Shown here piece after piece: positions 6,656-45,585 of a stretch of 45,585 nt of DNA. The translations under genes and the position numbers were made by a program. Origin of the DNA: a virus (lineage: Duplodnaviria > Caudoviricetes); IMG/VR virus record IMGVR_UViG_3300019874_000008, positions 1-45,585 of that record; one strand, written 5' to 3'. The stretch's first letter is position 1; each line of letters opens with the position of its first letter. The notes beneath the pieces were generated by a model. The model had not been told where the DNA came from. It did no database searches and saw nothing but the letters and a program-made list of their open reading frames with translations.

Positions 6656-6970
6656 CTACTTTTTTTCAGGGTAACTACCGGGTAACTGTAAAGTGTTGAT
6701 AATCAGCTCGGGTAACTACTTTTGCAGAAATGGGTTCAAACTATGGACAGAAAAATAAAATAATAATTAATAAAATATATTTATACCCTTGTATAATATT
6801 AAGGAAAAGTAGTTACCCTTAATTTATAAATAAGTTACTAATCAATACAGATGTGGGTTTAAAGAGGGTAACTACATAAAAAAATCAGTTGCCCTGCATA
6901 AGTTACGCTGTTACCCTAATATAAAAGTAGTTACCCGAGCTATTATTTGTAAGTTACACTTAGTTACACT
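6650..6970. repeat. Iteron-like GGGTAACTAC repeat cluster; putative replication origin
   Basis: About a dozen GTAAC-core copies in both orientations around an AT-rich centre; perfect 19-bp inverted repeat 6705-6723/6923-6941. Confidence 0.75.
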
Positions 6971-8558: not shown

Positions 8559-9107
8559 ATGATCTACTACTTCACCCCATATTCAACCGTCAAAAACCTT
8601 GGAGCCGAGTATAACAGGTACATGGCCCTGTTGACCGACGATAATCATGCAGTGTTCATGGATGGTGATACGATGTTCTTAACACCCGATTACGGGATGA
8701 TCATAGCAAAGTACGTGGAGCAATATCCTGATACGGTGTTAACGTGCTGGACCAACAGGATACATGAATTGGCGATCGGGCAGCTGGACAAGCTGGCGCC
8801 CGCAACGGATAGTATTGCTGACCATATCCGCTATGCTAAAGAGGTTTCTGAGCGCGAAGTGAATGTTACACCTATTACCGGTCCTGTTTCAGGTTTCCTG
8901 ATGGTAGTACCAAAGAGAGTATGGTTGCAGCATAAATTTACAGAAGTACAGGTTTATGCAAAATCAGGGCCGTATAACTTACTCGGTGTGGACAACGAGT
9001 TTACCAATGGTGTTCGTGTATTAGGGATACCTGTATTGCGAATGAATAGTATTTATATTTTTCACACATATCGTCTTTTGGATGGTAGTAAAGCGCACTT
9101 ACTTTGA
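8559..9107 (+). CDS. Putative GT-A glycosyltransferase
   Basis: NLGAEYN, VFMDGD (DxD), SGFLM, GVDNEF, IFH. Confidence 0.65.
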   Translation: MIYYFTPYSTVKNLGAEYNRYMALLTDDNHAVFMDGDTMFLTPDYGMIIAKYVEQYPDTVLTCWTNRIHELAIGQLDKLAPATDSIADHIRYAKEVSEREVNVTPITGPVSGFLMVVPKRVWLQHKFTEVQVYAKSGPYNLLGVDNEFTNGVRVLGIPVLRMNSIYIFHTYRLLDGSKAHLL

Positions 9108-9865
9108 CCCTCACTCCTCAAAACATATTAGCCGCATTGCAGGGTAATACTCCTTTGTCATTGGTCAGAATAGGGGATGGCGAAGGAATAATCCTTAATG
9201 CCTTGACCAGTTACCACGCTTTAGACCTGGCGAATACTGCTGTCCTTAACAGGCAGTTAGGTTTCAGCCCTTCACTGGATGATATAAAGCAGATAAGGCA
9301 GAACCTTATCACAGCGTATGAAGGCGCTGATATTATCGGGGTCCCGATGCACAAGCAAGCAACCAGCACCCATTGGACAGGTGTAGTTGATATTATGAAG
9401 TCTAACTGTAATATTACCACTGATAAGTTTACCTCCACTGATATAGGCTACGATATGCTTAATGCAGGCTTATTCGATACACTGCTGCAGGACAGGGATC
9501 AACTGGCTTATATCAGCTGCCGGCAGTTAGAGGAAAGGGTAGCTAAGAAGTGGAATATAGCAAGGGTTAGCGGGTATCATATTTCTCCAGAGGTTAAATT
9601 CACGAGTGGTTACAAAGGTGAGCCGCACTGGCCGGTACAGTTCAATAAAGCCGCCAGGTGGATGGATGTAGTTTGCAGACCCGGTATGCTGTTGCTCGTT
9701 GGTGCAGGTGTAGTAGGCAAGATATACTGCCAGTGGTGGAAGGAAAGGGGTGGTATTGCTTTTGATGTGGGGAGCGTACTAGATGAGTGGGCAGGGAAAG
9801 TAACAAGAGGCCCGGAACGTGGATTAGATAAAGAAATTGCCGATGGCAAAGGATATAAAATATAA
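9104..9865 (+). CDS. GT-D fold (DUF1792-like) glycosyltransferase
   Basis: SLVRIGDGE and LVGAGVVGK...AFDVGS. Confidence 0.7.
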   Translation: MTLTPQNILAALQGNTPLSLVRIGDGEGIILNALTSYHALDLANTAVLNRQLGFSPSLDDIKQIRQNLITAYEGADIIGVPMHKQATSTHWTGVVDIMKSNCNITTDKFTSTDIGYDMLNAGLFDTLLQDRDQLAYISCRQLEERVAKKWNIARVSGYHISPEVKFTSGYKGEPHWPVQFNKAARWMDVVCRPGMLLLVGAGVVGKIYCQWWKERGGIAFDVGSVLDEWAGKVTRGPERGLDKEIADGKGYKI

Positions 9866-9868
9866 TTT

Positions 9869-10285
9869 ATGAACCTCTACTCCCGCATAAAACCAAACAC
9901 CCTACTACACATCATCCACCGTAAGGAAGATTGGATCGATGGCAGGCAGGATCTGACGCCGGAAACAACGGCATTGCAGGTAGCCACTATCAAACAACCT
10001 GCAGGGCAAACGTTCAGACCGCATAAGCATATACCTAACGAACGTATTATCCCGATAACTAATGAGTGTTGGGTTATACTGACGGGCAGTGTTAAGGCAA
10101 CGTATTACGATATTGATAACAGCGTACTGCACGAGGATGTACTACTGCCCGGCGATGTAACGATAACAGTAGGTGAAGGTGGGCATAATTACCTGTTTAT
10201 GAAAGATGGCGTAGCACTGGAAGTAAAGAATGGGCCATGGGTTGGTACAGAAAAAGATAAAGAATTTATATGCGAACAATTGTAA
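9869..10285 (+). CDS. Cupin-fold protein (WbuC/sugar isomerase-like)
   Basis: PHKH...E...GGH...EVKNGP. Confidence 0.75.
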   Translation: MNLYSRIKPNTLLHIIHRKEDWIDGRQDLTPETTALQVATIKQPAGQTFRPHKHIPNERIIPITNECWVILTGSVKATYYDIDNSVLHEDVLLPGDVTITVGEGGHNYLFMKDGVALEVKNGPWVGTEKDKEFICEQL

Positions 10286-10923
10286 CAACAAGTAATTTAT
10301 ACCTTCACCTGTTACCGGTATTTACCTACCTGTGGAATAAATACTACCCGGGCCAGCAGGTAACAGTATTAGGCTACGATGTTCCACGTGAATCGCTGCC
10401 TGGTAACTTTACGTTCGTATCAATGGGCAGGCAGGGAGATGTGTGTGAATGGTCAACAGATATACGTAAGTGGGTAGAGGGGCAGGATGCGGAATGGCTG
10501 CTATGGGTAATGGAAGACACCTTTCTTAAAACATCTGTTAACAGTGAGCAGATAGATTGCGCATGCGCTTTGATGTACGAGGGTATAGGCCGTATAGGGC
10601 TTACAAAAGATATTCAGAACAGAGAACATAATACCGATCAGTTTGGTGTAGTATGGGCTCATCCTGAAAGCAGGTACAGACTGAGTACGCAACCGTCTAT
10701 ATGGAATAAAAAGTTTCTGTTGCAGCATATGACCGAGGGGTTAACACCATGGGAATTTGAAACACAGGATCCAAAGAATGATAATTGGGCGGTAGTTGGA
10801 TTGAAGGAGTGGCCTATATCTCACAATGAAGGAGTAAATAAACGGGATAGATTCGCACTTGATCTAACAGGTATGGTGAAGGAAGATATTGATCACATAA
10901 ATAAAATTAAAGCAACGTGGTAA
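10270..10923 (+). CDS. Putative glycosyltransferase
   Basis: MEDTFL, STQPSIW, TPWEFE motifs of GT-like proteins in glycan clusters. Confidence 0.55.
   Translation: MRTIVTTSNLYLHLLPVFTYLWNKYYPGQQVTVLGYDVPRESLPGNFTFVSMGRQGDVCEWSTDIRKWVEGQDAEWLLWVMEDTFLKTSVNSEQIDCACALMYEGIGRIGLTKDIQNREHNTDQFGVVWAHPESRYRLSTQPSIWNKKFLLQHMTEGLTPWEFETQDPKNDNWAVVGLKEWPISHNEGVNKRDRFALDLTGMVKEDIDHINKIKATW
10380..10395. other. parS-like site within CDS
   Basis: TGTTCCACGTGAATCG, 14/16 to TGTTCCACGTGAAACA. Confidence 0.45.
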
Positions 10924-11450
10924 AGGTTAACGTAGGCTGCGGTAAAAGGAACTGGTCAAGCGAGGGCTGGATCAGCGTAGATGGCGCTGACTTTCCGCAT
11001 GTAACCAATAATGATGTATCGCTTAAATGGATGGATAACGATAGCGTTGATATCATTGTTGCATCGCATTTGATAGCGTATTTTGATCACAATGATGCGG
11101 TATCAATATTGAAAGAATGGTTACGGGTATTGAAACATGGTGGCGTTTTACATATAAGTACACCGAATATGTATGTTATTAGCAAGCTAATTGCTGATGG
11201 TATGCAGTTAAAATATGCATTAGGCCCTGTTTACGGCAGAGCTTATGGTGATGGGCATAAGGTTGGATATGATTATCTATCAATGATAATACTATTAGGC
11301 ATTGCGGGTTTTACAAATATAGAAATCTACGACCACCGCACCACCTGTCACCCCAACACCGGCAACAGAGAGGATTATTACGACGATCATAGTGCAGCAT
11401 ATATCGAGGGTACTCTTATATCTCTTAACGTTCAAGCTACCAAACCATGA
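10917..11450 (+). CDS. Class I SAM-dependent methyltransferase (type 11-like)
   Basis: VNVGCG, SVDIIVASH, RVLKHGG. Confidence 0.85.
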   Translation: MVKVNVGCGKRNWSSEGWISVDGADFPHVTNNDVSLKWMDNDSVDIIVASHLIAYFDHNDAVSILKEWLRVLKHGGVLHISTPNMYVISKLIADGMQLKYALGPVYGRAYGDGHKVGYDYLSMIILLGIAGFTNIEIYDHRTTCHPNTGNREDYYDDHSAAYIEGTLISLNVQATKP

Positions 11451-12145
11451 GCGATACATCAGATTGGATGGTAACGGGTAGTGACCTCCATAACTATCTG
11501 CAGGCTTGCAGGGAAATAAATATGTCCACGTTCAAACAGGATAACAGGCTAACCAAGATATTTGAACATTCTACCAAAAGACAGGGGAGGGAGTATTTAA
11601 AAATTATCCTTAACCAGCATCCCGAATGGTTGAAGTTCGATTTTACCAATGATGCGATAGGTAACCCCACTACCCACGATTTTGGGCTGGTCCGAGCCTC
11701 GGCATCCACACTGCAGTATATAGGCGTACTATCCAACCTGGTTAAACGTTTTGGTCCTCTGAATGGATTACGTATAGTAGAGATAGGTGGCGGCTACGGC
11801 GGTCAGTGCAGGACTATCCTTGATATGTTCCAGCCTGCATGCTACCACTTGATAGACCTGCCGGAAGTGGTAGGCCTGCAGCGTATGTACTTAGGTGCAC
11901 ATCCATGCAAGGCGGGAGAGGTTGAATTCTTAACTGAGCCGAACGGGAGAGGTTATGATTTAGTGATCAGTAACTATGCACTAAGCGAAGTACGGGATAA
12001 CGATCGGTATATGACCGAGGTTGTGGAGCGTTCTAAACACGGATACCTTACCTGTAACACGAATCTGGTACAACTTAATTTTAAACACGACCGTTTCCCT
12101 GACCTTGTTAGCGAAGCGGTTAATAATTTTATATTGGTATGGTAG
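11447..12145 (+). CDS. Putative sugar O-methyltransferase
   Basis: IGNP, IVEIGGGYGG, IDLPEV, DLVISNYALSE. Confidence 0.8.
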   Translation: MSDTSDWMVTGSDLHNYLQACREINMSTFKQDNRLTKIFEHSTKRQGREYLKIILNQHPEWLKFDFTNDAIGNPTTHDFGLVRASASTLQYIGVLSNLVKRFGPLNGLRIVEIGGGYGGQCRTILDMFQPACYHLIDLPEVVGLQRMYLGAHPCKAGEVEFLTEPNGRGYDLVISNYALSEVRDNDRYMTEVVERSKHGYLTCNTNLVQLNFKHDRFPDLVSEAVNNFILVW

Positions 12146-12480
12146 AAATATTCACGGTTGCTACGGGCAACGTTGATAGCGAGGGAGATATAATTGTATT
12201 AAGCGGTATTAAAGTGCCGCAAAAGAAAATTCTTGTATTTCATAATTTTGACCAATCCAGCCCAATAGGCGAAATAGAAGGGTACGAAATTAAGGGCAAT
12301 GAGTTTATTGTAAAGGCAACACTTGCCGAAGATGTAAAAGGTTTATACCCTGCCATCGGATATACCGTTAATAAAAGCAGGCAAGAAGGTGATGTTAGGG
12401 TTATAGAGGATTTAACATTGCACTCAATAGGATTATGCGGCAACCCTAACGCTGACGAAACCATTAAACCTATATCATGA
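12139..12480 (+). CDS. Small prohead-protease-like protein, probably inactive
   Basis: DSEGDII...VFHNFD...PIG...AIGY...LHSIGLCGNPN follows the HK97 protease motif order. Confidence 0.5.
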   Translation: MVEIFTVATGNVDSEGDIIVLSGIKVPQKKILVFHNFDQSSPIGEIEGYEIKGNEFIVKATLAEDVKGLYPAIGYTVNKSRQEGDVRVIEDLTLHSIGLCGNPNADETIKPIS

Positions 12481-13229
12481 CCATCGCCACCTCCATCACA
12501 GCTGACTACCTGGAAAGGTCGCAACCCTACTTCCAAAGCGTGGCATTACACATGCCCGACGCAAGGCGCATTTGCTTTACGATAGGCTTTACCACTACTA
12601 TTGAAGGATGGGAATGCGTACACGTTCCTTTCAGTGAGATAGTATGGCGCCCAATGAATAGAGAGGGCTATCAATCTTTACAACATGGCGAATTTACCAA
12701 GTATGCCAACTTTGACGCTGACGAAATGATATTGTTTACCGACAGCGATATGGTATTGCAGCGTAAATGGGATATTGAACTACCGCCGACGGATAGTATT
12801 TTAGTCACTTATTCATCATGGCCGCAGACGCCGCTTATGGAAGTGGTAAAGAACTTGGCACCGGTAAGAAGGATCGACAAAGTGTTAAAAAAATGGGGTA
12901 TCTTGGTACAGCGGGAATTTTGCACCTGTTTTATCGGGGCTAAGGCATCGACGTGGGAACGGCTGTATAAAGTTTGCACCGCACTATACGGGGTGCTGGA
13001 TGAGTTCGAGCACCATGCGGCGCAGCAGTTAATGATCAATCTTGCGGTGCATAATTACTTTAAATCGCACCAGGTATTACCGCCGTTCGTGGTTAATGCG
13101 TCATGGTATGAGGGCACAGAGGCTGAAGGCGAGCCACTGAAGGTGATGCAGACTGGCAAGGATGTGAAGGGTGAACCGGTAGAGATCGAGGAAACAGTTT
13201 ATTTTAATCATAGTAAATTTAATGTGTGA
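12477..13229 (+). CDS. Putative GT-A glycosyltransferase
   Basis: ILFTDSDMVLQ DxD motif; C-terminal FNH. Confidence 0.6.
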   Translation: MTIATSITADYLERSQPYFQSVALHMPDARRICFTIGFTTTIEGWECVHVPFSEIVWRPMNREGYQSLQHGEFTKYANFDADEMILFTDSDMVLQRKWDIELPPTDSILVTYSSWPQTPLMEVVKNLAPVRRIDKVLKKWGILVQREFCTCFIGAKASTWERLYKVCTALYGVLDEFEHHAAQQLMINLAVHNYFKSHQVLPPFVVNASWYEGTEAEGEPLKVMQTGKDVKGEPVEIEETVYFNHSKFNV

Positions 13230-13410
13230 TAAGCGACGATATAGCAAACGTGAAGCACAGGAAGCATTGAACGCCTGTAAAAAATTCAGGCGCAAACAAT
13301 TTCGTAAAGAAAAAAGATTTTATCACTGCCACGAATGTAATATGTGGCACTTAACAAGTAAAGCATGGCACCGGATTTTTCAACCGTTACCGAATTTGAG
13401 AACAGGATAG
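13222..13410 (+). CDS. Small basic zinc-finger-like phage protein
   Basis: CDKRRY...RFYHCHECNMWHLTS. Confidence 0.65.
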   Translation: MCDKRRYSKREAQEALNACKKFRRKQFRKEKRFYHCHECNMWHLTSKAWHRIFQPLPNLRTG

Positions 13411-13985
13411 CCGAGTTCTTTGGAGCGCCGTATGCGGTTATGACAGATAGTTGCACCAGTGCAATTGAATTATGCTTGAGATATAAGAAAGAAAAGATCA
13501 TGTATTCCCCACGCAGGACATACCTGTCAATACCTATGCTTGCAGAAAAATTAGGAATAAAATTAGTGTGGCACCACGAAAACTACGTATGGAAAGATTA
13601 TTACCCTGTTGTTATACGTGACGATTATACTACACCAATTTATGACGCAGCGGTATTGTGGCGCAAAAACAGCTACGAGCCCAACTCTTTTATGTGCTTA
13701 TCCTTTCAGCGGCAAAAGCACTTATCATTGGGGAAAGCTGGTATGATCCTTTGCGACAACAAAGAAGCGGCTGATATGTTAAAACTGATGTCATATGATG
13801 GCCGCCAACATGATATACCGTGGCGTAATCAAGATGTATCGGTTATGGGTTATCACTATGCACCCACTTTTGAAACAGCAGCATTGGGTCTTAGTAAACT
13901 GGATGCGGCTATTGCAACAGAGCCCCGCCAATGGGTTGTTACAGACTGGCCGGACCTTACACAAATGAAAATATTTAAACAATAA
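13365..13985 (+). CDS. DegT/DnrJ/EryC1/StrS-family sugar aminotransferase (short form)
   Basis: FENRIAEFFGAPYAVMTDSCTSAIEL, DAA, SFQRQKHL (PLP lysine), GMIL. Confidence 0.85.
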   Translation: MAPDFSTVTEFENRIAEFFGAPYAVMTDSCTSAIELCLRYKKEKIMYSPRRTYLSIPMLAEKLGIKLVWHHENYVWKDYYPVVIRDDYTTPIYDAAVLWRKNSYEPNSFMCLSFQRQKHLSLGKAGMILCDNKEAADMLKLMSYDGRQHDIPWRNQDVSVMGYHYAPTFETAALGLSKLDAAIATEPRQWVVTDWPDLTQMKIFKQ

Positions 13986-13997
13986 AATACACATAAC

Positions 13998-14228
13998 ATG
14001 TCACAAACAATTGGAGAAAAAAGAGTTCGTTCAGCTTTTAACCCGTCAGGTGCGGGCAATGTAAACGCCATCAAAAACAACACCGCAACTTTGATTAACA
14101 TTTGCGAAGAAATGAAACCTAAAGATGGTTCAATATTGAACAATGAGCAGGCTCGGCTTATTGCACTTGCTCAAACTGCTTACGAAGAAGCTGCAATGTG
14201 GGCTGTTAAAGCAGCTACTTATGAGTAA
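13998..14228 (+). CDS. Acb2/Tad1-like helical hairpin protein (candidate immune-signal sponge)
   Basis: 76 aa; RLIALAQTAYEEAAMWAVKA resembles the Tad1 ALTHVEEALMW helix (from recall). Confidence 0.5.
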   Translation: MSQTIGEKRVRSAFNPSGAGNVNAIKNNTATLINICEEMKPKDGSILNNEQARLIALAQTAYEEAAMWAVKAATYE

Positions 14229-15180
14229 AAAAGTTCTTATATTCGGCATAGCAGGTCAGGATGGATCATACCTAACGGAATACCTGTTATCGTTAGGGCA
14301 TGAAGTACATGGCACGATACGTCGTAACAGTACGCCTGAAAATCAGGAGTGCAGGATTGATGGGCTGCCTGTTACTACTTACTATGCCGACTTGTTAGAT
14401 ACCGGAAGTATTGATACGGTACTAAGGACAGTTATGCCTGATGAAATATATAACCTGGCCGCACAATCGCACGTCCGTATCAGTTATGATGTACCACAAT
14501 TTACGGTACAGACAAATGCATTGGGGGTATTGAATTTATTAGAAGCATATCGTAAGATTTGCCCAAAAGCAAGGTTTTACCAAGCTAGTAGCAGCGAAAT
14601 GTTTGGCACAAGTGTAGACAGTGATAATTACCAAAGAATAACTACACCCATGTCGCCGGTATCACCATACGGCTGTGCAAAGGTTTTCGGTTACAATATT
14701 TGCCGTAATTACCGCCATGCGTTCGGGTTGCATGTAACCAACGGCGTTCTTTTTAACCATGAAAGCTCCCGACGTGGATCTAATTTCGTTACCAATAAAG
14801 TGGTGAAAGCAGCAGTACGCATTAAGTTAGGATTGCAGGATGTATTAGAATTAGGAAATATGGATAGTTACCGTGATTGGGGCCATAGCAAAGACTATGT
14901 GAAAGCTATGCACCTCATGATGCAACAGGATAAACCAGGAGACTGGGTGGTAGCTACCGGCGTAACGCATTCAGTGAGGGATATGGTAGAATATGTTTTT
15001 GGAAAGCTGGATGTTAGCATGGACAAAGTGATCACTAACGATAAATTCAAACGTCCGCAGGAACTTGACTATTTACGTGGCGATGCTACGCCAATACGTA
15101 AACTTGGCTGGAAACCGGAGTACACCTTTGAAAGTATGTTATTGGAAATGATAGAACATTGGTTAAATTTCATGGGGTAA
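14221..15180 (+). CDS. gmd: GDP-mannose 4,6-dehydratase
   Basis: GIAGQDGSYL, YNLAAQSHV, YQASSSEMFG, SPYGCAK, FNHES, RDWGH. Confidence 0.96.
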   Translation: MSKKVLIFGIAGQDGSYLTEYLLSLGHEVHGTIRRNSTPENQECRIDGLPVTTYYADLLDTGSIDTVLRTVMPDEIYNLAAQSHVRISYDVPQFTVQTNALGVLNLLEAYRKICPKARFYQASSSEMFGTSVDSDNYQRITTPMSPVSPYGCAKVFGYNICRNYRHAFGLHVTNGVLFNHESSRRGSNFVTNKVVKAAVRIKLGLQDVLELGNMDSYRDWGHSKDYVKAMHLMMQQDKPGDWVVATGVTHSVRDMVEYVFGKLDVSMDKVITNDKFKRPQELDYLRGDATPIRKLGWKPEYTFESMLLEMIEHWLNFMG

Positions 15181-15212
15181 AATGTAAAAAGTATAGTACA
15201 AAACAATAGCAA

Positions 15213-15845
15213 ATGACCCGCACCTGTTTTACCGCCATCATTGGTAACTACGAAGACCTTAAAACGCCAACGGTAATAACGCCGGGATGGGAATATATTT
15301 GTTTTACCGATCAACCGTTGCAACCCGATGTATGGAAAATAGTACAGGTGCCTGCCGGTGATAACCCGCAACGTACGGCTCGGCGCATTAAGATAATGTT
15401 CCATGAATATATCGATGCGGAGCAATCCATGTGGCTCGATGCTGCTTTTCAGATCAATTGTGACCTAAATAAGTTTTGGAACTACTTTAAATCACCGCTG
15501 ACGGTACCGAAGCATCCGCTGCGTACTTGTGTTTATGCAGAGATACGTTCGTGCCTTGCTAATAACCGTGGCGATGCGGCAGAGCTGGTAGCGCAGGAAG
15601 CAGCGTACAAGGCAGAGAATTTCCCCTACTTCACTAATAATATTATCACCAGCGGCGTATTGATGCGTGACCGGCGTTCTATACCTTTGTGTGAGGCGTG
15701 GTGGGCAGAGTTGTCGAAACACAGCGCCAGGGATCAGGTAGCATTTGCGAAGATATGCGGGGCGTTCGACTGGTATAAGTTCAATTGGGATTACAGCCAG
15801 TCAAGAGAATTGCACTATATTAAACACTTTCACCATAGACATTGA
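15213..15845 (+). CDS. DUF616 (TOD1/MUCI70-like) glycosyltransferase
   Basis: TAIIGNYE, ICFTD, WLDA, HPLRTCVYAE, RDQVAF. Confidence 0.8.
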   Translation: MTRTCFTAIIGNYEDLKTPTVITPGWEYICFTDQPLQPDVWKIVQVPAGDNPQRTARRIKIMFHEYIDAEQSMWLDAAFQINCDLNKFWNYFKSPLTVPKHPLRTCVYAEIRSCLANNRGDAAELVAQEAAYKAENFPYFTNNIITSGVLMRDRRSIPLCEAWWAELSKHSARDQVAFAKICGAFDWYKFNWDYSQSRELHYIKHFHHRH

Positions 15846-15849
15846 AAAT

Positions 15850-16449
15850 ATGATAACGAATCACACACAGTTGATAAATTGGCTGATTGCAAAACATAAT
15901 CTTACTTCCTACTGTGAGATCGGAACGCAAAACTGTAACAATAATTTCCATAAGATACACAGCCCGGTAACATCATTGATTAAAGTTGGTGTAGATCCCG
16001 AACCTATCAATGGTGACAATAGGATAACGGTTGGTACAAGTGATGAATACTTTGCGCTAAACCCGCCAAAGATGGATATCTATTTCATTGATGGTTACCA
16101 CGAGTGTGAGCAAGTGAAACGTGATTTCGAGAACACCCTCCGCTGCCTTAACGACAACGGCTTTATAGTTCTCCACGACACACTACCCGATGAGGAACAA
16201 TTTACCACTGTTCCACGTGCAACAAAAAAATGGTTCGGCAACGTATATTTATTTGCCACAACCTTGTACGCTTACGGTTTGGAATACGTTACCCTTGATA
16301 TGGATTGCGGTTGTACTGTGGTAAGAAAGAAACAAGCTGCCACAGCGCCAAAGGTACCAGCAGCAACGCAGAATTGGGAAGGTTATGTAAAGCATGGTAG
16401 GGAATTAATGAATGTTATAAAACCGGGGGAGATTGAAAATTATTTTTGA
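15850..16449 (+). CDS. Class I SAM-dependent methyltransferase (Methyltransf_24-like)
   Basis: YCEIG, GVDP, TSDEYF, DIYFIDGYH, GFIVLHD. Confidence 0.85.
   Translation: MITNHTQLINWLIAKHNLTSYCEIGTQNCNNNFHKIHSPVTSLIKVGVDPEPINGDNRITVGTSDEYFALNPPKMDIYFIDGYHECEQVKRDFENTLRCLNDNGFIVLHDTLPDEEQFTTVPRATKKWFGNVYLFATTLYAYGLEYVTLDMDCGCTVVRKKQAATAPKVPAATQNWEGYVKHGRELMNVIKPGEIENYF
16209..16224. other. parS-like site within CDS
   Basis: TGTTCCACGTGCAACA, 15/16 to the parS palindrome. Confidence 0.6.
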
Positions 16450-25660: not shown

Positions 25661-25932
25661 AATTCGCATTAGGTAAATTAGGCTGGACAGCTTACGAATA
25701 TTATACAAGTAGCCCCTACGAGTTTTATGCAGCTTGTATGGGCTATTTTGATAAACTGGAGGACGAGAGCCTTGCAACCCGCAACCTTGCATTTGTTATG
25801 GCACGTGCTAACGGTTACAAAGGAACGATAGAAGGGCTTTGGCCACTGAAGAAAAGCAAGGTACAGGCAGAGAAAATGATAATGTCGCAGGAGTTGTGGG
25901 ATACAATTAAAAAGACACATAATATTCAATAA
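25607..25932 (+). CDS. Tail assembly chaperone -1 frameshift extension (GT)
   Basis: -1 frame open from the A-run (SDTPAEQKAYWYKNLKFALGKLGWTAYEYY...) into the 25738..25932 ORF. Confidence 0.8.
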
Positions 25933-27986
25933 TGGCATTAGAGATAAGGGTAGAAGCGCAAACGGGGCCTGCAACTGCTGCAGTCGATAAGCTCGATAAA
26001 TCGCTTGCCAAACTAGGCAATGATGCGAGAACGGCAGGGGCGGAAGTAGCAAGATTGGGAAGGTCGCTTGATCCTGTGTCAGCGGGTATGAATTTATTAA
26101 ACCCGTCTATCAATAATGCAAGTAAATCACTAGAGCGTGTAAAATCAACTGCGGGCACAGCAGGCCAATCATTACAGAACTTAGGTCGTATCGCTCAGGA
26201 TGCCCCCTTTGGTTTTATTGGTATTCAGAATAACATCAACCCTTTACTGGAATCGTTCCAACGATTAAAGGTTGAAACGGGTAGTAGCAGTGCGGCATTT
26301 AAGGCATTAGGGTCATCTTTATTAGGCGCTGGCGGATTAGGGTTGGCTGTTAGTGTGGCAACGGGGCTGCTTACCATATTCGCACAAAACGGATTATTCA
26401 GTACATCCAAAGCGGCTGATGAAGCGACTGAGGCTATAAAAAAATACAAGGATAATATAAAGGGTATTTTTTCGGAAGCTGGTAAAGAAGCAGGCGAAGT
26501 ATTATCACTGATCGCTGTATTAAAAAGTGAAACAGAAACGCGCCAAAGAAAATTACAGGCGCTAAAGGACCTGAAAGAAATTCAGCCTGAAATTTTCGGT
26601 CAATTAAAATTAGAAAAAGATGCAGTTATAGGCTTAGATGTGGCTTACAAGGCATACATAGCTAACTTCAAGAACGTTATTGCTGCAAAAATAATCCAAG
26701 CACAGATAGAAGCTAAAGTAACTAAATTACTAGAGAAACAGGGGGCTACTCAATCAAAATTATCTCAACAATTGTTGGCAGGCTTAAGAACTTCGGCCCA
26801 ACAAATGGCAGCAAATGGGCAAGGAGGATTTTTGCAAAAACTAGATGATAAGGCAAGATCAACCACGAAAGAAATAGCTGTATTGAATAAAGAAATTGAA
26901 GACCTTGTTAGCCAGCTAGTTCCACTTAGTAAGAATGTGGAAATAAAAATTGATAAGGATAAGAAAGCAAAAAAAGACGTCGAAACAATTACTGATGTAC
27001 TAAATAAACTCGGGCATGAATTATACGCCTTATCCAGCCAGGAGATTTTATTTAAAACCGATGAATCAAAGAAAAAGGTAGAGGAAATAGAAAAAACTGT
27101 AGATAAATTAATAACAAAGTTCAGTGTAAGCGCCAACTCTCCATTGATCGAAAAATTATTAGGACTGCGTGATCCATTTATATTAAATCAGTTAAATGCA
27201 ATTTTAAAAAAGGCAGAACAGGTAGAAAATTTAAGGGCATTCAAGGTTGAACTGCCTTTAGATATTGTACCGATTAAACCAAAGTTTCTTATTGACCCCT
27301 CTTTGATAGAGGCTGATATGGTTAAGCAGTTAGGTGATCTCGGCATTACCAAAGGCTTACAGGATGGTATAAACGTAGCCGTAACAGCTTTAAGGTTCCC
27401 GCAATTAACGGCATTATTAGAAAGTGCAAAGCAGGGATTTGCTGAATTGAGTGCCCGGCTAACAGGGGTGCTCGAAAGTACGATCGAGGCATCTTTAGTG
27501 AATGTGGGCAATATTATCGGCGAAAGTATAGGCAAGGCATTACAGGGGCAAGCGTTGAGTGTAAAGGATATTTTCGGATCGGTATTCCAGATAATAGGTG
27601 ATGGGCTAAAAGCGTTTGGCCGGGCGTTAATTGAGTACGGTATTGCTTTGAAGGTGATTAAATTGGCTATTAAAAATCCTATAACTGCAATACTCGGCGG
27701 TATAGCTTTGATTGCGGCAGGCACATTATTGCAATCCGCAGTACCAAAATTCGCTACCGGCGTTGGTAACTTTGCCGGTGGCTCTGCGATAGTAGGTGAA
27801 AGAGGCCCCGAACTGGTAAATCTGCCCACTGGTAGTGACGTTATTCCTAACGGTAGATTAAACGCAATAGGATCAGATACAGCAGGAGGCACACTTAGCT
27901 GCGTTGTAAGAGGGCAGGATCTGATATTCGTATTGAACCAGGCCAATAGGTCTAATGGCCGTAATGGCTTCAGCACTCTCGGCTGA
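25932..27986 (+). CDS. Tape measure protein
   Basis: Long helical Ala/Leu/Lys-rich; QDAPFG...NNI; C-terminal FATG...VGERGPE. Confidence 0.9.
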   Translation: MALEIRVEAQTGPATAAVDKLDKSLAKLGNDARTAGAEVARLGRSLDPVSAGMNLLNPSINNASKSLERVKSTAGTAGQSLQNLGRIAQDAPFGFIGIQNNINPLLESFQRLKVETGSSSAAFKALGSSLLGAGGLGLAVSVATGLLTIFAQNGLFSTSKAADEATEAIKKYKDNIKGIFSEAGKEAGEVLSLIAVLKSETETRQRKLQALKDLKEIQPEIFGQLKLEKDAVIGLDVAYKAYIANFKNVIAAKIIQAQIEAKVTKLLEKQGATQSKLSQQLLAGLRTSAQQMAANGQGGFLQKLDDKARSTTKEIAVLNKEIEDLVSQLVPLSKNVEIKIDKDKKAKKDVETITDVLNKLGHELYALSSQEILFKTDESKKKVEEIEKTVDKLITKFSVSANSPLIEKLLGLRDPFILNQLNAILKKAEQVENLRAFKVELPLDIVPIKPKFLIDPSLIEADMVKQLGDLGITKGLQDGINVAVTALRFPQLTALLESAKQGFAELSARLTGVLESTIEASLVNVGNIIGESIGKALQGQALSVKDIFGSVFQIIGDGLKAFGRALIEYGIALKVIKLAIKNPITAILGGIALIAAGTLLQSAVPKFATGVGNFAGGSAIVGERGPELVNLPTGSDVIPNGRLNAIGSDTAGGTLSCVVRGQDLIFVLNQANRSNGRNGFSTLG

Positions 27987-28030
27987 TGGGACCGGCCCCG
28001 AAAGACAGCTCACGCTCTTTGAAAATACCG

Positions 28031-28062
28031 CTTGACAATCTGGCTAACGCTTCTTATATTTG
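28031..28062 (+). promoter_or_regulatory. Bacteroidota-type promoter firing toward the left dif-like site
   Basis: TTG-N20-TATATTTG. Confidence 0.55.
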
Positions 28063-28109
28063 CTTCGCCGCTGCGCTACAGGTCTAAGCTTCGGCGAAAG
28101 GCATTTAAA

Positions 28110-28139
28110 AACCCATATAACCGAGTTATTATGTTAAAT
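28110..28139 (+). other. dif-like XerC/XerD site (left; 8-bp spacer)
   Basis: AACCCATATAA-CCGAGTTA-TTATGTTAAAT; right arm identical to the E. coli dif XerD arm. Confidence 0.7.
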
Positions 28140-28295
28140 AGGCACACACCTATTCCACGTGCACTTTTAATTGTTTTTTTTGCCCAACGCTACACGTAGA
28201 AGATTGGAATTTGAGGGTGTTCTGTTCCGTTTTTAGCGTTGACGTATAAAATTAAATTACTTTGAAAGTGAGATGGGATATAGTATTTTTTTTTA

Positions 28296-28589
28296 CTAGC
28301 ATGATTTATATGCTAGTATCAGTGTCCATACTCCTGCGACACCTCCGATTATTGTAAAAACAATACCCCAGACAGTTAATTTTGATTCTTTACGAGGCGT
28401 TTCATAAATACCAAATACTCTATACCCTCCATCATATATTTCAACGTTTTTTAGATTAATATAGCGTGTCACTATACTATTGAACTCGTTTATATTATTC
28501 ACCGTGTGAGATATATAAGGGCTTCCTAGCCCATCTTTTGACCTCGAATAGATGTTTAATTTTACTGGAAATTTCGGCTTGTAGCTCAT
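28296..28589 (-). CDS. Hypothetical protein with C-terminal TM helix
   Basis: VWGIVFTIIGGVAGVWTLILAY. Confidence 0.65.
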   Translation of the reverse strand: MSYKPKFPVKLNIYSRSKDGLGSPYISHTVNNINEFNSIVTRYINLKNVEIYDGGYRVFGIYETPRKESKLTVWGIVFTIIGGVAGVWTLILAYKSC

Positions 28590-28611
28590 GTTGGTTTCCC
28601 AATATACAACC

Positions 28612-28788
28612 CTATCTCAACACTTGCAAGCACAGGGCGCAGGTAGAAATGTATACAACGCACTGCGTGCCTTGTATAAGGCATAGTGATACATCCGTAT
28701 CACACAGGGCCTGGCAGATAAAATTAACCCCTCCGTAGATGAATATATCCCCAGTGTGCAACTGGCCTACCGTAGTGTGTTTTTCCAT
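28612..28788 (-). CDS. Small Cys-rich hypothetical protein (58 aa; not in ORF track)
   Basis: MEKHTTVGQLHTGDIFIYGG...CALCLQVLR, translated by hand. Confidence 0.5.
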   Translation of the reverse strand: MEKHTTVGQLHTGDIFIYGGVNFICQALCDTDVSLCLIQGTQCVVYISTCALCLQVLR

Positions 28789-28885
28789 GTTGTGAATATA
28801 GTGGGATTGATCCGCACAGCATTACGGGTTACCGTAGGTATTTCTACGTAGGCGAACGGCTACAAACATATCGTTAAATATCCTA

Positions 28886-28916
28886 TTGTGAGTATCACCC
28901 TTGTTACTTACCTTTG
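28886..28916 (+). promoter_or_regulatory. Bacteroidota-type promoter
   Basis: TTG-N20-TACCTTTG. Confidence 0.6.
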
Positions 28917-28935
28917 GAACGGTAACGTTATTACC

Positions 28936-29120
28936 AAGCACAAAAAACCGTCTACTTGTTTACAGGAGCGCCATAAAATAAAAACGGCGTCCTGCCCTAT
29001 TTCATTTTTTGGTGACTTTAGACGGTTTACCAGTGCGATGAGAAACAGGCGGGCGCCGTTTTGTTTTTCAAAGGTAAGGGCATATTGCCAAAATTATTAA
29101 AGCACAAAAAAACGTCTAAA
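28936..29120 (+). ncRNA. Structured leader or C4/CI-like antisense RNA with flanking target repeats
   Basis: Stem 28981-28996/29048-29062; inner hairpin carrying TAGACGGTTT, complementary to direct repeats at 28936-28954 and 29100-29118. Confidence 0.5.
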
Positions 29121-29300
29121 ATGAAATTGTTATCTATCCTGGGATTCGAGGATCCCGCTGTTGAATTTTTTGCCCTTCTCGCTATCGCCGTACTTCCCTG
29201 GGTGATCCTTTATTATGTCATCAAAGCTGCCGTAAAGAATGGCATCCTTGAATCCAAAGAAGACAAAGTAACCGTTAGCGATACTTCAACTCAAAAATAA
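29121..29300 (+). CDS. Small single-pass membrane protein
   Basis: FFALLAIAVLPWVILYYVI; 59 aa. Confidence 0.65.
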   Translation: MKLLSILGFEDPAVEFFALLAIAVLPWVILYYVIKAAVKNGILESKEDKVTVSDTSTQK

Positions 29301-29307
29301 TTTTTAC

Positions 29308-29505
29308 ATGAAAAAAATCCTTTTTGCAGCTATGCTGCTATCTGTGCTATCATGCACTAAAGACAAAAAGTGTTGGAACTGCACCTACGGTACAGTTAAT
29401 GGTTACCAACCTCCGCCACAAGAAGTTTGTACTGATGGAGATTACCCACCGCCATACACTGATGCCGCAGGGAACGATTATAATTCATTTTGCCATGAAA
29501 GATAA
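29308..29505 (+). CDS. Small lipoprotein
   Basis: MKKILFAAMLLSVLSC lipobox; four further Cys. Confidence 0.8.
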   Translation: MKKILFAAMLLSVLSCTKDKKCWNCTYGTVNGYQPPPQEVCTDGDYPPPYTDAAGNDYNSFCHER

Positions 29506-29541
29506 TTTTGTATTTTGGTTATTCAACCAAAATGAAAGAGC

Positions 29542-29697
29542 ATGTCAAAAGACCCGTGGGAAGAACTATCAAACATCTCTCAAAGCATAAAGGATAAATC
29601 TAGGCGAAAAGCTTTAATTGAGTGGTTAAGATGGGGTATTACAACTGCGATAGCAGTTGCGGCGCTTGTTCTTTCACTTTTTAAGTGCAAGAACTAA
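29542..29697 (+). CDS. Small membrane protein (51 aa; not in ORF track)
   Basis: MSKDPWEEL...WGITTAIAVAALVLSLF. Confidence 0.55.
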   Translation: MSKDPWEELSNISQSIKDKSRRKALIEWLRWGITTAIAVAALVLSLFKCKN

Positions 29698-29957
29698 AAG
29701 TGTTATGGAAACTATAAGTTTCCATATAAACTCACGTGTCTCTTTATCTGACATAATTTAATTTTTTATTCTCCCCTACCGTTCCGGTAGTTACTCATTT
29801 TATGTCGTTTTCCCCGCACCCAGGGTGACGGTAACGCTCCGGGCGGCACAAAAAACATTTAAAACCGCACAGGCCCACACACGCTCTGCAGGCCGCTCTG
29901 CCACGAGCCGGTTTGTGTAATGAAACTTACAAACCGGCGCCACCCACAGGCTAACCT

Positions 29958-29985
29958 AAGTAACATAATGCAGGTTATATGGGTT
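29958..29985 (-). other. dif-like XerC/XerD site (right; 6-bp spacer; inverted)
   Basis: Minus strand AACCCATATAA-CCTGCA-TTATGTTACTT; 29973-29992 is a perfect 20-bp inverted copy of 28103-28122. Confidence 0.65.
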
Positions 29986-30040
29986 TTTAAATTTTCTTTT
30001 GTTGCACCCCTGCGCATCCGCTACGGTGTGATTGTCGCCG

Positions 30041-30085
30041 ACGACACGATTTTTTACAAATTGCCACGGTAAAAAATCGTGTCGT
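30041..30085. repeat. Perfect 17-bp inverted repeat with 11-nt loop
   Basis: ACGACACGATTTTTTAC / GTAAAAAATCGTGTCGT. Confidence 0.9.
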
Positions 30086-30161
30086 ACAGCCCTCTGCTTC
30101 TTATAAAGGTAATAAAAAATATCACTTTTTTATTTTTCTTTTTATTATACCTTTACACAGT

Positions 30162-32138
30162 ATGGCATATGGCTTGCATTCAATAGGCACATTCACTACC
30201 AGGGAATCGGAACCCGGTGCACCGCAGTATACCGGTAAGGTAGAGATACTGAAAAAAGATTATGCTGATGCTACTTATAATCTATGGTTCGGCACCTCGC
30301 CCGTCCTCCACAAATGGCAGGAAGATAATACACATGCGCCGATCAAGGGCAGCAGCCTAACCATTAACCTGCTCAACATCAATGGCAACACGCCGGCTGA
30401 AAGGTATCTATCAATAAATGATGATGATTTTATGGTGCGTCTAACCGTAGACGGTACTATACGTTTTATTGGTTTCCTGGTGCAGGACGATTTTGCGGAA
30501 GATATGGTGGACTATAATCACGGGCTAACGTTGAGTGCGAATGATAACTTAGGCTTATTGAAAGCTGTGCCGTTATACGTAGATCCTGCATTGATGATCG
30601 ATACCCGCTGCACATTACTAAGGGTTGTACAGGCTTGCATAAATGCCGCAACACTGGGGCTGAACGTGAATATTGCGGACAATCTTTATGAGGTCAATCA
30701 CACCGAAATAGATACCCCGCTGACACAAACTATAATTGATATTGATACATGGCTCGGTACAGATAACATCTATACCAACTGCTGGGATGTACTAACGCAG
30801 GTACTTAACCGACGCAAGGCATCACTGATGCAGGTTAACGGTGAATGGTGGATTGTTAGGTGGGATGAGTTACGCTATGGTGATGTAAGGTACTTTGCAT
30901 ATTCAAGCGGTGGTAACCTTTTAGGTGATGGTCTGCTACCCGCTACGATCATTGGCGGCAACAGGGTTGAAGGTATTGCAAAAGATTTCTTTGCATTATC
31001 AGCGCCGGTAAAATCATTCCAGCGGGGGTATAAACTCGATAAAGAAACATTTAATTATAAAGAACCTAAATATTTACTTAAGAATTTTGACCTGCAGGAT
31101 CTTGGCGACCTTATTAGGGAGTACGACCTCGCAGGGCCGGTACGTCATGTGAAGGAATATGTTTTTACATCGTGGCTGGGTAACTACGGCGCAGGCGCAA
31201 TGGAGCGTTTTATAAGGGTTATCTATGACATCAATAATAAAGAAATAGATCGCTACGCCGTTGTTCGTGGCACACCATTCGATACCTATCGTGCGGTGCA
31301 GTCTATGCCTATCGAGGTGGCATCAGGTGATAAGGTAAAAGTGTCAATGTCGTACCGTACCAATGACAGTCAACCGGGTTCTGTAACAACGGTATTCGCT
31401 GTTCGATTAACCAATGGCGTAGTGGCGCAGGACAGGTACGTAGATGAATTACCACTCAATAATGGTAACTGGAAATTGGGTATAGGGTATAATTATCTTA
31501 TTCCGTCGGGCGACAACAGTAACCAGTGGCATAGTGTGGAGATACAGTCAGGTCAAACACCGTTCGCAGGGTTGGTGTATGTGTACCTGCCTTATGCCAA
31601 TGAAGATTATGGCACGGCGCACGAAACCCAAATAAAGGGTATCAGTTTCGAGTATCAACCTTTCATTAACGACAGTCAAAGAGTAATTGGCCATGTTCAC
31701 ACATCGGAGCAGCCGGAAGGGCCAAAGAATACAGGGGACGAAGAAATATTTAACGATGACAGCCCCCGCCCATCATTAGCAGGGGTGCTGTACCTGCCTA
31801 GCTACACCGGCAATATACAAAACCGTACTTCACTATGGTACAGGCGGGGCTTTACGGAGGCGTTACGGTTAGGGCAGATCACTACCTTTGAGCAACTATT
31901 CTGGCGCAGGGTTAGCCGAAAGAGGGTTGAAGGGGTGTTTAAATACCGTGTACCATTATCAATGATCACTGTTTTTAAATACGATGCTTTTTTAGATTTA
32001 AACTTTATCTTTGGATCACTGGAAATAGATTACGCAGATAGCAGTGCCAGGGTAACGGCTTATGAGCAATACAAGGATGGCGATGTTGATAGCGATCTTA
32101 TTTCAGATTATACTTTTAAATACATTTACGAAAAATAA
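30162..32138 (+). CDS. Minor tail/tail-tip structural protein
   Basis: Large ORF downstream of tape measure; FIGFL...ANDNLGLLK. Confidence 0.7.
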   Translation: MAYGLHSIGTFTTRESEPGAPQYTGKVEILKKDYADATYNLWFGTSPVLHKWQEDNTHAPIKGSSLTINLLNINGNTPAERYLSINDDDFMVRLTVDGTIRFIGFLVQDDFAEDMVDYNHGLTLSANDNLGLLKAVPLYVDPALMIDTRCTLLRVVQACINAATLGLNVNIADNLYEVNHTEIDTPLTQTIIDIDTWLGTDNIYTNCWDVLTQVLNRRKASLMQVNGEWWIVRWDELRYGDVRYFAYSSGGNLLGDGLLPATIIGGNRVEGIAKDFFALSAPVKSFQRGYKLDKETFNYKEPKYLLKNFDLQDLGDLIREYDLAGPVRHVKEYVFTSWLGNYGAGAMERFIRVIYDINNKEIDRYAVVRGTPFDTYRAVQSMPIEVASGDKVKVSMSYRTNDSQPGSVTTVFAVRLTNGVVAQDRYVDELPLNNGNWKLGIGYNYLIPSGDNSNQWHSVEIQSGQTPFAGLVYVYLPYANEDYGTAHETQIKGISFEYQPFINDSQRVIGHVHTSEQPEGPKNTGDEEIFNDDSPRPSLAGVLYLPSYTGNIQNRTSLWYRRGFTEALRLGQITTFEQLFWRRVSRKRVEGVFKYRVPLSMITVFKYDAFLDLNFIFGSLEIDYADSSARVTAYEQYKDGDVDSDLISDYTFKYIYEK

Positions 32139-42821: not shown

Positions 42822-43601
42822 ATGACAAAGATTAAACTTTCAATTACTAACCGCTGGACAGGATCGATTATTTTCGAGTATGAAAAAGAAAATAATACAA
42901 TAGCGCAAACTGTTAGGGAAGCTATAAAGGGTGGTGCCAACCTTAGTGGTGCCGACCTTAGTGGTGCCAACCTTAGTGGTGCCAACCTTAGTGGTGCCGA
43001 CCTTAGTGGTGCCAACCTTAGTGGTGCCGACCTTAGAAGTGCCGACCTTAGAAGTGCCGACCTTAGTGGTGCCGACCTTAGAAGTGCCAACCTTAGTGGT
43101 GCCGACCTTAGTGGTGCCGACCTTAGTGGTGCCGACCTTAGAAGTGCCAACCTTAGTGGTGCCAACCTTAGAAGTGCCAACCTTAGTGGTGCCAACCTTA
43201 GTGGTGCCAACCTTAGTGGTGCCAACCTTAGTGGTGCCGACCTTAGAAGTGCCGACCTTAGTGGTGCGTTAAATGCTGATTACGCAATAGCCCTAACCCG
43301 TGTGTGCGCAGATGGAGATATTATAGGATGGAAAAAATGCGAAAACGGCGTGATCGTAAAATTACTTATCCCAAAAGAAGCAAAAAGAAACAATGCTTTT
43401 GGCAGGAAATGCAGGGCCGAATATGCGGATGTTTTAGAAATAATTGGGGCTGATATCGCCCGTAGCTCACATTATCACTCCTTCACTTACAAAGTAGGTG
43501 ATCGGGTAAGGCCGTCCGAACCTTTTAACGAAGATTTTACTAACGAATGCTCAACAGGTATTCACTTTTTTATAACAAGAATTGAAGCAGAAAATTATTG
43601 A
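42822..43601 (+). CDS. Pentapeptide-repeat protein with DUF5758-like C-terminus
   Basis: 22 A(D/N)L(S/R)(G/S) units; IVKLLIP...RKCRAE...[12 protein letters not shown]. Confidence 0.92.
42933..43267 (+). repeat. 15-bp coding tandem repeat, about 22 copies
   Basis: (G/A)GTGCC(A/G)ACCTTAG(T/A). Confidence 0.97.
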
Positions 43602-45388: not shown

Positions 45389-45585
45389 ATGACAAAGATT
45401 TTTAAAAATTACAAAGCATTTTTATACCGTACTGATAGAAAAGAAAACGGTGTAACGCAGGAATTTGCAGACAACAATCCAGACTACGAAAAGGACAACG
45501 AAAGCAACGAAGGGTGCTTTAATTGTATCGGTTGTAGCGGTTGTAGCGGTTGTAGCGGTTGTAGCGGTTGTAGCGGTTGTAGCGG
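45389..45585 (+). CDS. 5' part of Cys-x-x repeat protein (continues at position 1)
   Basis: MTKIFKNYKAF...NEGCFNCIGCSGCSG..., open to the window end. Confidence 0.85.
   Translation, partial: MTKIFKNYKAFLYRTDRKENGVTQEFADNNPDYEKDNESNEGCFNCIGCSGCSGCSGCSGCSGCS

Follow-up and report, generated by a model that had tools for sequence, protein, structure and literature searches.

A putative recombinase-free fold-back Xer cassette in the tail genes of a soil tailed phage

INTRODUCTION

How does a tailed phage in which no recombinase gene is recognised come to carry, among its tail genes, an inverted pair of sites resembling the dif sites of its likely hosts? The question is raised by an insert of about 2.1 kb in a phage from soil, lying approximately between positions 27987 and 30086 of the window (the whole 45,585-nucleotide stretch of DNA that was analysed). 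The window encodes head, connector, tail-tube and tape-measure proteins, marking it as a tailed phage, and a single open reading frame (ORF) continues from one end of the contig into the other by way of a 9-nt repeat, which makes the genome look circular and complete. Among cultured phages, only distant relatives are found. Relatives of the gene to the right of the insert lie in contigs whose bins include Ferruginibacter and Segetibacter, with one named Hanamia. These genera belong to the Chitinophagaceae, which make up the likely host family, as judged from gene relatives.

The statement in the original prediction that no recombinase gene is recognisable in the genome was borne out. Neither a recombinase nor a repressor was recognised among 65 ORFs compared with PHROGs and Pfam and 25 more compared with Pfam, and a search for PF00589 in all six frames of the window returned zero candidates.

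THE PAIRED DIF-LIKE SITES

The two sites and the genes that neighbour the insert are as follows.

25932 to 27986, plus strand: tape measure protein gene, with PHROG tape-measure matches; left neighbour, outside the cassette
28110 to 28139, plus strand: dif-like site A, with a XerC arm, an 8-bp spacer and a XerD arm equal to the host consensus, next to a conserved short extension
29958 to 29985, minus strand: dif-like site B, with the same XerC arm as site A, a 6-bp spacer and a XerD arm matching at 9/11 positions
30162 to 32138, plus strand: structural gene of the virion, placed where the tail tip gene would be; adjoins the insert on the right, outside the cassette

In site A, the XerC-like arm (28110-28120) and the XerD-like arm (28129-28139) are separated by the 8-bp spacer, while site B has an identical 11-bp XerC-like arm and a XerD-like arm that differs by two changes. 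The two sites thus stand as originally described, as an inverted pair with the XerD arms facing inward and spacers of 8 and 6 bp, both of which begin with CC. Their XerC arms start 1875 bp apart and fall within the predicted 20-bp inverted repeat (28103-28122 and 29973-29992, with 1850 nt between), which is indeed perfect and exceeds every other perfect inverted repeat of the window in length; in 30 shuffled sequences the maximum was 14-17 bp. A pattern derived from both sites, and hence fitted to them, matches only these two places in the window, with 0.04 matches expected by chance. Exact searches with the window's own arms returned 28 loci that lacked such pairs and were taken as chance matches.

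Resemblance to host dif, which had been proposed as a check, was confirmed, most clearly for the XerD arms. Among 121 genomes of the family to which the Ferruginibacter bin belongs, 47 were matched by a dif-type pattern that required the spacer to start with T and end with A, so that hosts with other spacers would escape it. The match was unique in 46 of the 47, and the control gave two matches. Across 36 of these dif regions, GGGNAGGG is oriented toward the site at a ratio of 67:8, a bias as expected for chromosomal dif. Compared with consensus sequences built from 31 and 36 host sites, the XerD arm of site A matches at 11/11 positions and that of site B at 9/11, and the XerC arm at 6/11, rising to 9/11 for the best single host site.

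ELEMENT BOUNDARIES AND CARGO

The element is larger than its two sites would mark out, running about 120 bp past site A on the left and about 100 bp past site B on the right. As proposed, the inverted pair brackets cargo; the ends of the element lie outside it. The features outside the arms are as follows.

27988 to 27994, plus strand: conserved GGGACCG motif at the left insert end, one base past the tape-measure stop
28032 to 28062, plus strand: promoter-like site with an 11/12 match to sigma-70, pointing across site A into the cargo
28091 to 28097, plus strand: motif M, complementary to M' at 30035-30041; lengthens the fold-back stem
29907 to 29938, unstranded: inner hairpin Q, adjoining the XerD arm of site B
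30035 to 30041, plus strand: motif M', the complement of M at 28091-28097
30041 to 30085, unstranded: outer hairpin P, with a 17-bp perfect stem, at the right insert end

Read from the right, the order in the window is P, M', site B, Q, cargo, site A, M, the promoter-like stretch and GGGACCG. The GGGACCG motif occurs as a single copy in the window, and the second box of the promoter-like site also fits the Bacteroidota -7 consensus. The flanking hairpins, as well as the link to cassettes at host dif described below, were absent from the original prediction.

The cargo consists of five short ORFs, mostly membrane-like, and one structured non-coding stretch.

28296 to 28589, minus strand: ORF of 97 aa with a C-terminal hydrophobic stretch, no family
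28612 to 28788, minus strand: ORF of 58 aa, no family
28907 to 29120, minus strand: structured non-coding stretch with a 19-nt direct repeat whose two copies enclose a complement, and a 31-nt inverted repeat
29121 to 29300, plus strand: ORF of 59 aa, a DUF6019-like membrane peptide (PF19483, 24.6 bits, marginal against a cut-off of 23.6)
29308 to 29505, plus strand: ORF of 65 aa, a predicted lipoprotein with a lipobox-like N-terminus by sequence
29542 to 29697, plus strand: ORF of 51 aa with a C-terminal hydrophobic stretch, no family

The non-coding stretch folds with a z-score of -2.6 and its layout is like that of an antisense control element, and Rfam yielded no credible match. No usable match to the 97-aa ORF was found in the Atlas, the 65-aa predicted lipoprotein had zero matches in a large protein search, and none of the cargo ORFs belongs to a Rep family. 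A 37% homologue of the 65-aa ORF is encoded in the phage locus L089, between the tape-measure and tip genes and without dif-like sites. In relatives, the cargo includes a PemK-like gene and an NYN gene.

RELATED FRAMES IN OTHER PHAGES

Relatives of the window phage were found by alignment and comprise 164 loci in 113 clusters at 95%; a single-protein search for related viral loci yielded none. The tape-measure-to-tip junction could be measured in 144 cases, 107 of them distinct, with gaps of at most 315 bp in 104 and of 493-825 bp in three. The site pair is found in 0/107 of these distinct junctions, contrary to the conservation in this interval for which the original prediction had suggested looking. 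A single match in the tape-measure gap of L109, without partner or hairpin, was dropped. At other places, inward pairs whose XerC arms are identical do occur in four clusters of relatives: three have the pair where portal and head-morphogenesis genes adjoin, and the fourth has it behind the tip gene; in three shuffled controls, a looser cut gave 0, 1 and 2 such pairs. In all, the frame is present in about 5 of the 113 clusters, at variable places of the late operon.

Further frames came to light in pattern scans, among them those of a myovirus group and of a phage with another portal type. A scan built on GGGACCG was mostly noise, its 121 loci reducing to three known frames and one weak AT-rich pair. 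Twelve phage frames, the window and 11 further loci, were compared; they occupy eight kinds of gene junction in both orientations, with spacers of 6-9 bp, 0.37-1.9 kb between the sites, and insert ends 40-130 bp outside the sites. Hairpin P lies outside site B in 12/12 frames and outside site A in none, and since six of the twelve were located by a pattern that requires P, it is relevant that it is also present in 6/6 of the frames found through proteins or as the window itself. The GGACCG core, first spotted in these same frames, occurs within 150 nt outside site A in 9/12 and outside site B in 0/12, against a background of 0.7% of 150-nt windows; L311 and L040, looked at later, also carry it. 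Each of the 11 other frames has a private word of 8-14 nt common to both flanks. Hairpin Q has a z-score of -2 or below at 9/13 phage sites and 5/6 foldable host sites, compared with 5/40 random windows.

The frames appear mobile, with cargo that is swapped. Empty insertion sites are found in relatives that are 73-80% identical (L112, L031 and L305), and in a pair of myoviruses nearly the same frame encloses unrelated cargo. To this extent the prediction of an exchangeable module was correct; simple inversion found no support. The swap points lie about 60-110 bp inside the XerD arms, in the XerD-side extensions, and not at the spacers, where cargo exchange had been anticipated. Xer crossover at the spacers cannot explain swaps inside these extensions.

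Among the readings in the original prediction were an invertible module and a dimer-resolution site, with Acinetobacter pdif modules and cer as known parallels; all of these would act as double-stranded Xer sites. An inverted dif-like pair does flank the cargo, in both orientations in different phages, and the 8-bp spacer of site A is as in cer, whose spacer has 8 bp. A double-stranded module of any of these types is nonetheless very improbable. In 12/12 frames, the spacers of a pair differ in length, and in sequence past the first one or two bases, so that two-strand exchange should be blocked; unequal and unrelated spacers thus speak against both pdif-type exchange and inversion. In addition, P, M and the end motif turn together with the cassette, which places the determinant of orientation outside the sites. 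Pieces of the cassette are present in contigs from two studies, four runs in all, and these show no inversion joint, a weak test at low depth; one of the samples is possibly the source of the window. For dimer resolution, one site suffices, and many tailed phages carry a single perfect host-type dif instead; the two inverted cores seen here also differ from cer and psi, which have a single core with accessory sequence and act in direct repeat.

The patchy occurrence of the frame and its empty sites would also suit a passive moron. In that case, part of a host dif cassette would have been acquired by illegitimate recombination and kept for its cargo, with Xer sites that are inert in the phage. 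This account would also accommodate the partial frame of L040, which has kept P, site B and the end motif and lost site A, and the cargo homologue at the same junction in L089. However, separate captures would not all open at P and share one end motif. Furthermore, the sites of L034 and L273 are 100% identical while their flanks are 92-96% identical (over short stretches), and one of two frames in the phage G406, which encodes two tyrosine recombinases, contains two internal closed junctions. A passive moron is accordingly held to be quite unlikely. The record L046 was rejected as a prophage junction, as the whole record is a cassette array inside a phage.

CLOSED CASSETTES BESIDE HOST DIF

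Comparison with host chromosomes shows that what appears to be the same cassette family is found next to chromosomal dif sites in the likely host family as well. In 36 dif regions of 20 kb each, drawn from the 47 matching genomes with preference for signs of cassettes so that shares are biased upward, an inverted B-like site lies 0.7-1.5 kb past the XerD arm of dif in seven, cassettes lie on the XerC side in four, and an extension like that of site A stands directly next to dif in nine. Five of the seven contain a complete back-to-back junction, in which P is followed by a direct A-like site. Junctions with dif are of two types, XerC-side in L210 and L242, the latter with two tandem 876-bp units, and XerD-side in the seven regions. 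No close copy of the window cassette itself was present in the fetched host regions; one 43-nt match was to another phage.

In the back-to-back host junctions, 108-138 bp separate the XerC arms, with P between them, and P forms the loop of these closed sites as well. The eight complete junctions have predicted folds of -43 to -61 kcal/mol, with the arms paired and P as the loop, and four incomplete junctions have predicted folds of -18 to -27 kcal/mol. When the right flank of the window is joined to its left flank, a fold of the host type is predicted at -56.0 kcal/mol (z -12.8, equalled in 0/100 shuffles). The palindrome of P extends for 15-19 bp through M and M' in five closed host copies, whereas in 13 opened phage copies it ends after 1-7 bp and M is found at the other end. 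This comparison shows the phage copies to correspond, at the level of sequence, to a putative host-type closed circle opened at the foot of P.

Partner arms also co-vary, as expected if they pair with each other. Outer XerC arms within a pair are identical at 6.0 of 7 positions in the 12 phage frames compared with 3.7 when permuted (p 5e-5), and at 4.25 compared with 2.28 in the eight host junctions (p 4e-4), p values that are inflated by kinship among frames. The first spacer base is equal within the pair in 12/12 phage frames and 8/8 host junctions. Together with the predicted folds, this co-variation agrees with the analogy to the CTX attP that was drawn originally. Perfect XerC arms are found in 7/12 phage frames compared with 0/11 host junctions (p 0.005; p 0.004 for repeat length), and this enrichment suggests selection for folding within the phage.

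The phage frame does not seem to be simply a host cassette cut open, as the GGGACCG end combined with a site was found in 1/401 host genomes, below the control count. A role for GGGACCG as a KOPS-like signal was rejected, its orientation relative to dif being 8:10, without skew.

A PROPOSED MECHANISM

On this evidence, the insert is probably a recombinase-free mobile fold-back Xer cassette, carried opened in phages, whose folded sites would present a XerC/XerD target to host XerCD; this reading is held with somewhat better than even confidence. In the attP(+) of CTX, two inverted site pairs that do not work as double-stranded sites fold into one Xer site (PMC3442271; PMC4246890). By analogy, sites A and B of one strand would pair with each other to form a single XerC/XerD target, probably within a single-stranded circular intermediate, and host XerCD would join the circle to dif or to another cassette by one strand exchange that is resolved by replication. 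Cassettes upstream of dif would fit a XerC-side crossover, and those downstream would be explained if the crossover took place at site A, on its XerD edge; in this way dif would keep its own XerC arm and spacer and gain the extension of A. The window resembles the downstream class in its spacers starting with C and its B-type XerD arm. At the XerD side, the B spacer equals the host spacer for 2-4 bases in 6/6 scored cases, and the XerD-side product is expected to contain a terminal mismatch on one exchanged strand. XerD strand exchange on folded single-stranded DNA is reported not to occur for CTX, and the cassettes may offer natural substrates for asking whether it does.

Entry into phages would require a Xer-independent event that opens the circle at the foot of hairpin P. 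The opened frame could then act as a landing pad for further cassettes and for cargo encoding small membrane proteins; the closed junctions in the G406 frame and a repeated site A in the phage G417 make it appear that opened frames do collect cassettes. Under this model, it is likely that host Xer enzymes shuttle genes between chromosome and phage. A bolder version, possible though on balance doubtful, envisages an integron-like phage platform run by host XerC and XerD, which would take in, release and trade cassettes with dif arrays through XerD-side single-strand exchange, a mirror image of CTX, and could even pull a whole integrase-less phage into dif.

Integration of the whole phage is also the core of a separate explanation, in which the frame serves as a lysogeny module that can pass between phages: its two sites would fold across the cargo and host XerCD would integrate the integrase-less phage at dif, as an IMEX (an integrative mobile element that exploits Xer) of a tailed phage. 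In topological terms, the phage genome occupies the loop of a host-type site, and selection for folding within the phage, as suggested by the enrichment of perfect XerC arms, fits this explanation too. No PF00589 recombinase was found in the window or in 9/10 other frame-bearing records searched (those nine being partial), and the 36-kb phage G413, which also lacks PF00589, has a compact closed fold-back site at an operon convergence. Moreover, double-jelly-roll dsDNA phages of Vibrio are reported to use dif (PMC12715192).

Lysogeny of this kind is still considered unlikely. Neither the window's family nor the myovirus group has a structural gene in any of the 36 host dif regions, and the frame junction occurs in 0/85 viral loci holding host-type dif; prophages at host dif with junctions at the sites, another check that had been proposed, were thus not found in either set. 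Matches to the tip gene occur in 9/401 host genomes, and in the five that were checked dif was located in two, on another contig. The variable place of the frame in the late operon, the presence of two frames beside G406's own recombinases and the lack of a recognised repressor among the window ORFs point the same way, as do the window spacers, which start with CC where host spacers start with T (as demanded by the search pattern). Five proviruses that start at dif and lack PF00589 were inspected and rejected; none has the frame, and one was annotated as a Mu-like phage with a transposase.

If the mobile fold-back cassette is the correct reading, Xer hijacking would no longer be confined to viruses that are filamentous or tailless, and would take in tailed phages as well as gene cassettes that are not viral. 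Gene capture without any gene of its own would be invisible to annotation tools, and accessory genes such as those for membrane peptides, PemK-like and NYN proteins would have a route between phages and the chromosome terminus.

RELATION TO KNOWN XER SYSTEMS

No description of dif cassettes in Bacteroidota or of fold-back Xer sites in tailed phages was found in the full-text literature, which included few subscription papers. Integron cassettes offer one parallel, in that their attC, which has R and L boxes, recombines as a folded single strand and cassettes are stacked at a double-stranded platform site. The present cassettes are likewise gene cassettes with a folded single-strand site, here predicted, at a platform. 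Unlike integrons, the window encodes no integron integrase, the folded site mimics dif by its dif arms, and the presumed enzymes are the housekeeping XerC and XerD.

The closest likeness is to IMEX of the CTXphi type from Vibrio cholerae (PMC3442271; PMC4246890). Both have two inverted XerC/XerD pairs with unequal centres, which on a single strand fold so that bases beside the XerC arm pair and those beside the XerD arm are mismatched (for the cassettes, in predicted folds), and both lack a recombinase of their own and form tandem arrays at dif. CTX-type elements integrate at dif with homology on the XerC side, through XerC catalysis and replicative resolution, and have an ssDNA stage; related cassettes at host dif show XerC-side junctions in L210 and L242 and XerD-side junctions in seven regions. 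The cassettes differ in having no gene for replication (rolling-circle Rep) or virions, in the short loop around P on the XerC side of host copies, in the XerD-edge junctions of one cassette class, and in being carried opened in tailed dsDNA phages of Bacteroidota. CTX-type sites lie about 90 bp apart in an attP of about 150 nt, a compact size shared only by the closed host copies (108-138 bp) and far exceeded by the 1875 bp of the window. The window is probably a variant of CTX-type Xer hijacking; what it contributes is the opened form, its conserved ends, empty sites and cargo swaps.

Acinetobacter pdif/dif modules (PMC12907356) share the placing of cargo within inverted dif-like sites, the multi-module arrays and a presumed dependence on host XerCD. 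However, those modules have 28-bp sites with 6-bp centres and act as double-stranded sites, whereas here spacer length ranges over 6-9 bp, the two spacers of a pair do not match, the arms co-vary as fold-back partners, the arrays abut the main dif, and the boundaries are not at site centres, insert ends lying outside the sites and swaps inside them.

Alpavirinae proviruses and PhiCjT23-like prophages are similar in belonging to Bacteroidota, in their dif-like att and in lacking a recombinase, and some microvirus proviruses have an extra dif-like site near one end (PMC3091885; PMC9719478). These are autonomous small ssDNA viruses, while the present element is a cassette of less than 2.2 kb without a Rep or capsid gene. 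Dif-type double-jelly-roll prophages of Vibrio (PMC12715192) are tailless, and their one dif-like attP is accompanied by XafT-like and repressor genes, of which none is recognised here. Like the window, they are dsDNA phages with a horizontally gained Xer module and variable adjoining cargo.

Tailed Phages and Proviruses with dif or dif-Like Sites

In several groups of tailed phages, the genome contains one perfect dif of the type found in the likely host family, Chitinophagaceae (L519, L526, L529, L540, L556, L584; L530, L536, L560; L567, L574; L244). This single site often lies 1.5-2.9 kb from the portal gene, and members of the recombinase family PF00589 were absent from all five of the records checked among these groups. 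In addition, five related proviruses of 33-47 kb (G439-G443; L596-L609), which are 83-94% identical over their aligned parts, each start at a dif site. In one of them, G439, there is a gene for a Mu-type transposase, and close to the far end lies an XerD arm in inverted orientation. We read these proviruses as Mu-like phages favouring dif.

A compact closed fold-back pair of dif-like sites, with XerC arms 56 bp apart, is found in the 36-kb phage G413 (L245:9410-9525), where it is placed at the convergence point of two operons. A search of this phage record for PF00589 found none, and the pair is a candidate attP for the whole phage.

Cargo and Edges of the Cassettes

Two features of the window lie inside the cassette and just beyond its right end:

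28907-29120, structured stretch with a 19-nt direct repeat, a complementary copy between the repeats and a 31-nt inverted repeat
30096-30106, single XerC-arm-like 11-mer, near the host consensus

The structured stretch lies upstream of two small minus-strand ORFs and gave no credible match in Rfam; its arrangement is reminiscent of the antisense control of P1 c4 or P4 CI. The 11-mer is located 110 bp past site B and directly beyond hairpin P. It is not followed by an XerD arm and could be the remnant of a third site that has decayed, or a chance occurrence.

Among related elements, the cassette of G417 (L379:3893-6799) carries a PemK/MazF-like gene and an NYN-domain gene in its cargo, together with a direct repeat of site A plus about 250 bp. 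An island in the host dif region L219 (5.1 kb before dif) is limited on one side by a dif-like site whose spacer measures 8 bp and on the other by host dif, and contains arsenate-reductase-like and regulator ORFs, names taken from reading the sequences rather than from a family scan.

Other Features of the Phage Genome

Elsewhere in the window, the following features were found:

6705-6723 / 6923-6941, 19-bp perfect inverted repeat directly after the primase gene
8559-16449, block of glycosyltransferase-like, methyltransferase, aminotransferase and GDP-mannose dehydratase genes
13998-14228, 76-aa ORF with a match to the Acb2/Tad1 hairpin domain (PF24729, E 1e-11)
42822-43601, pentapeptide-repeat gene
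45389-45585 + 1-487, Cys-rich ORF with a 9-nt repeat, running across the contig ends

A further, incomplete arm of the inverted repeat occurs at 6649-6663, and the repeat region (6649-6941) is a candidate replication origin. The 76-aa ORF is a candidate anti-defence sponge. On either side of the gene block lie the genes for the small and the large terminase; other parts of the genome encode a Mom-like protein and two DNA methyltransferases. PHROG 31265 is common to the pentapeptide-repeat gene and the Cys-rich ORF.
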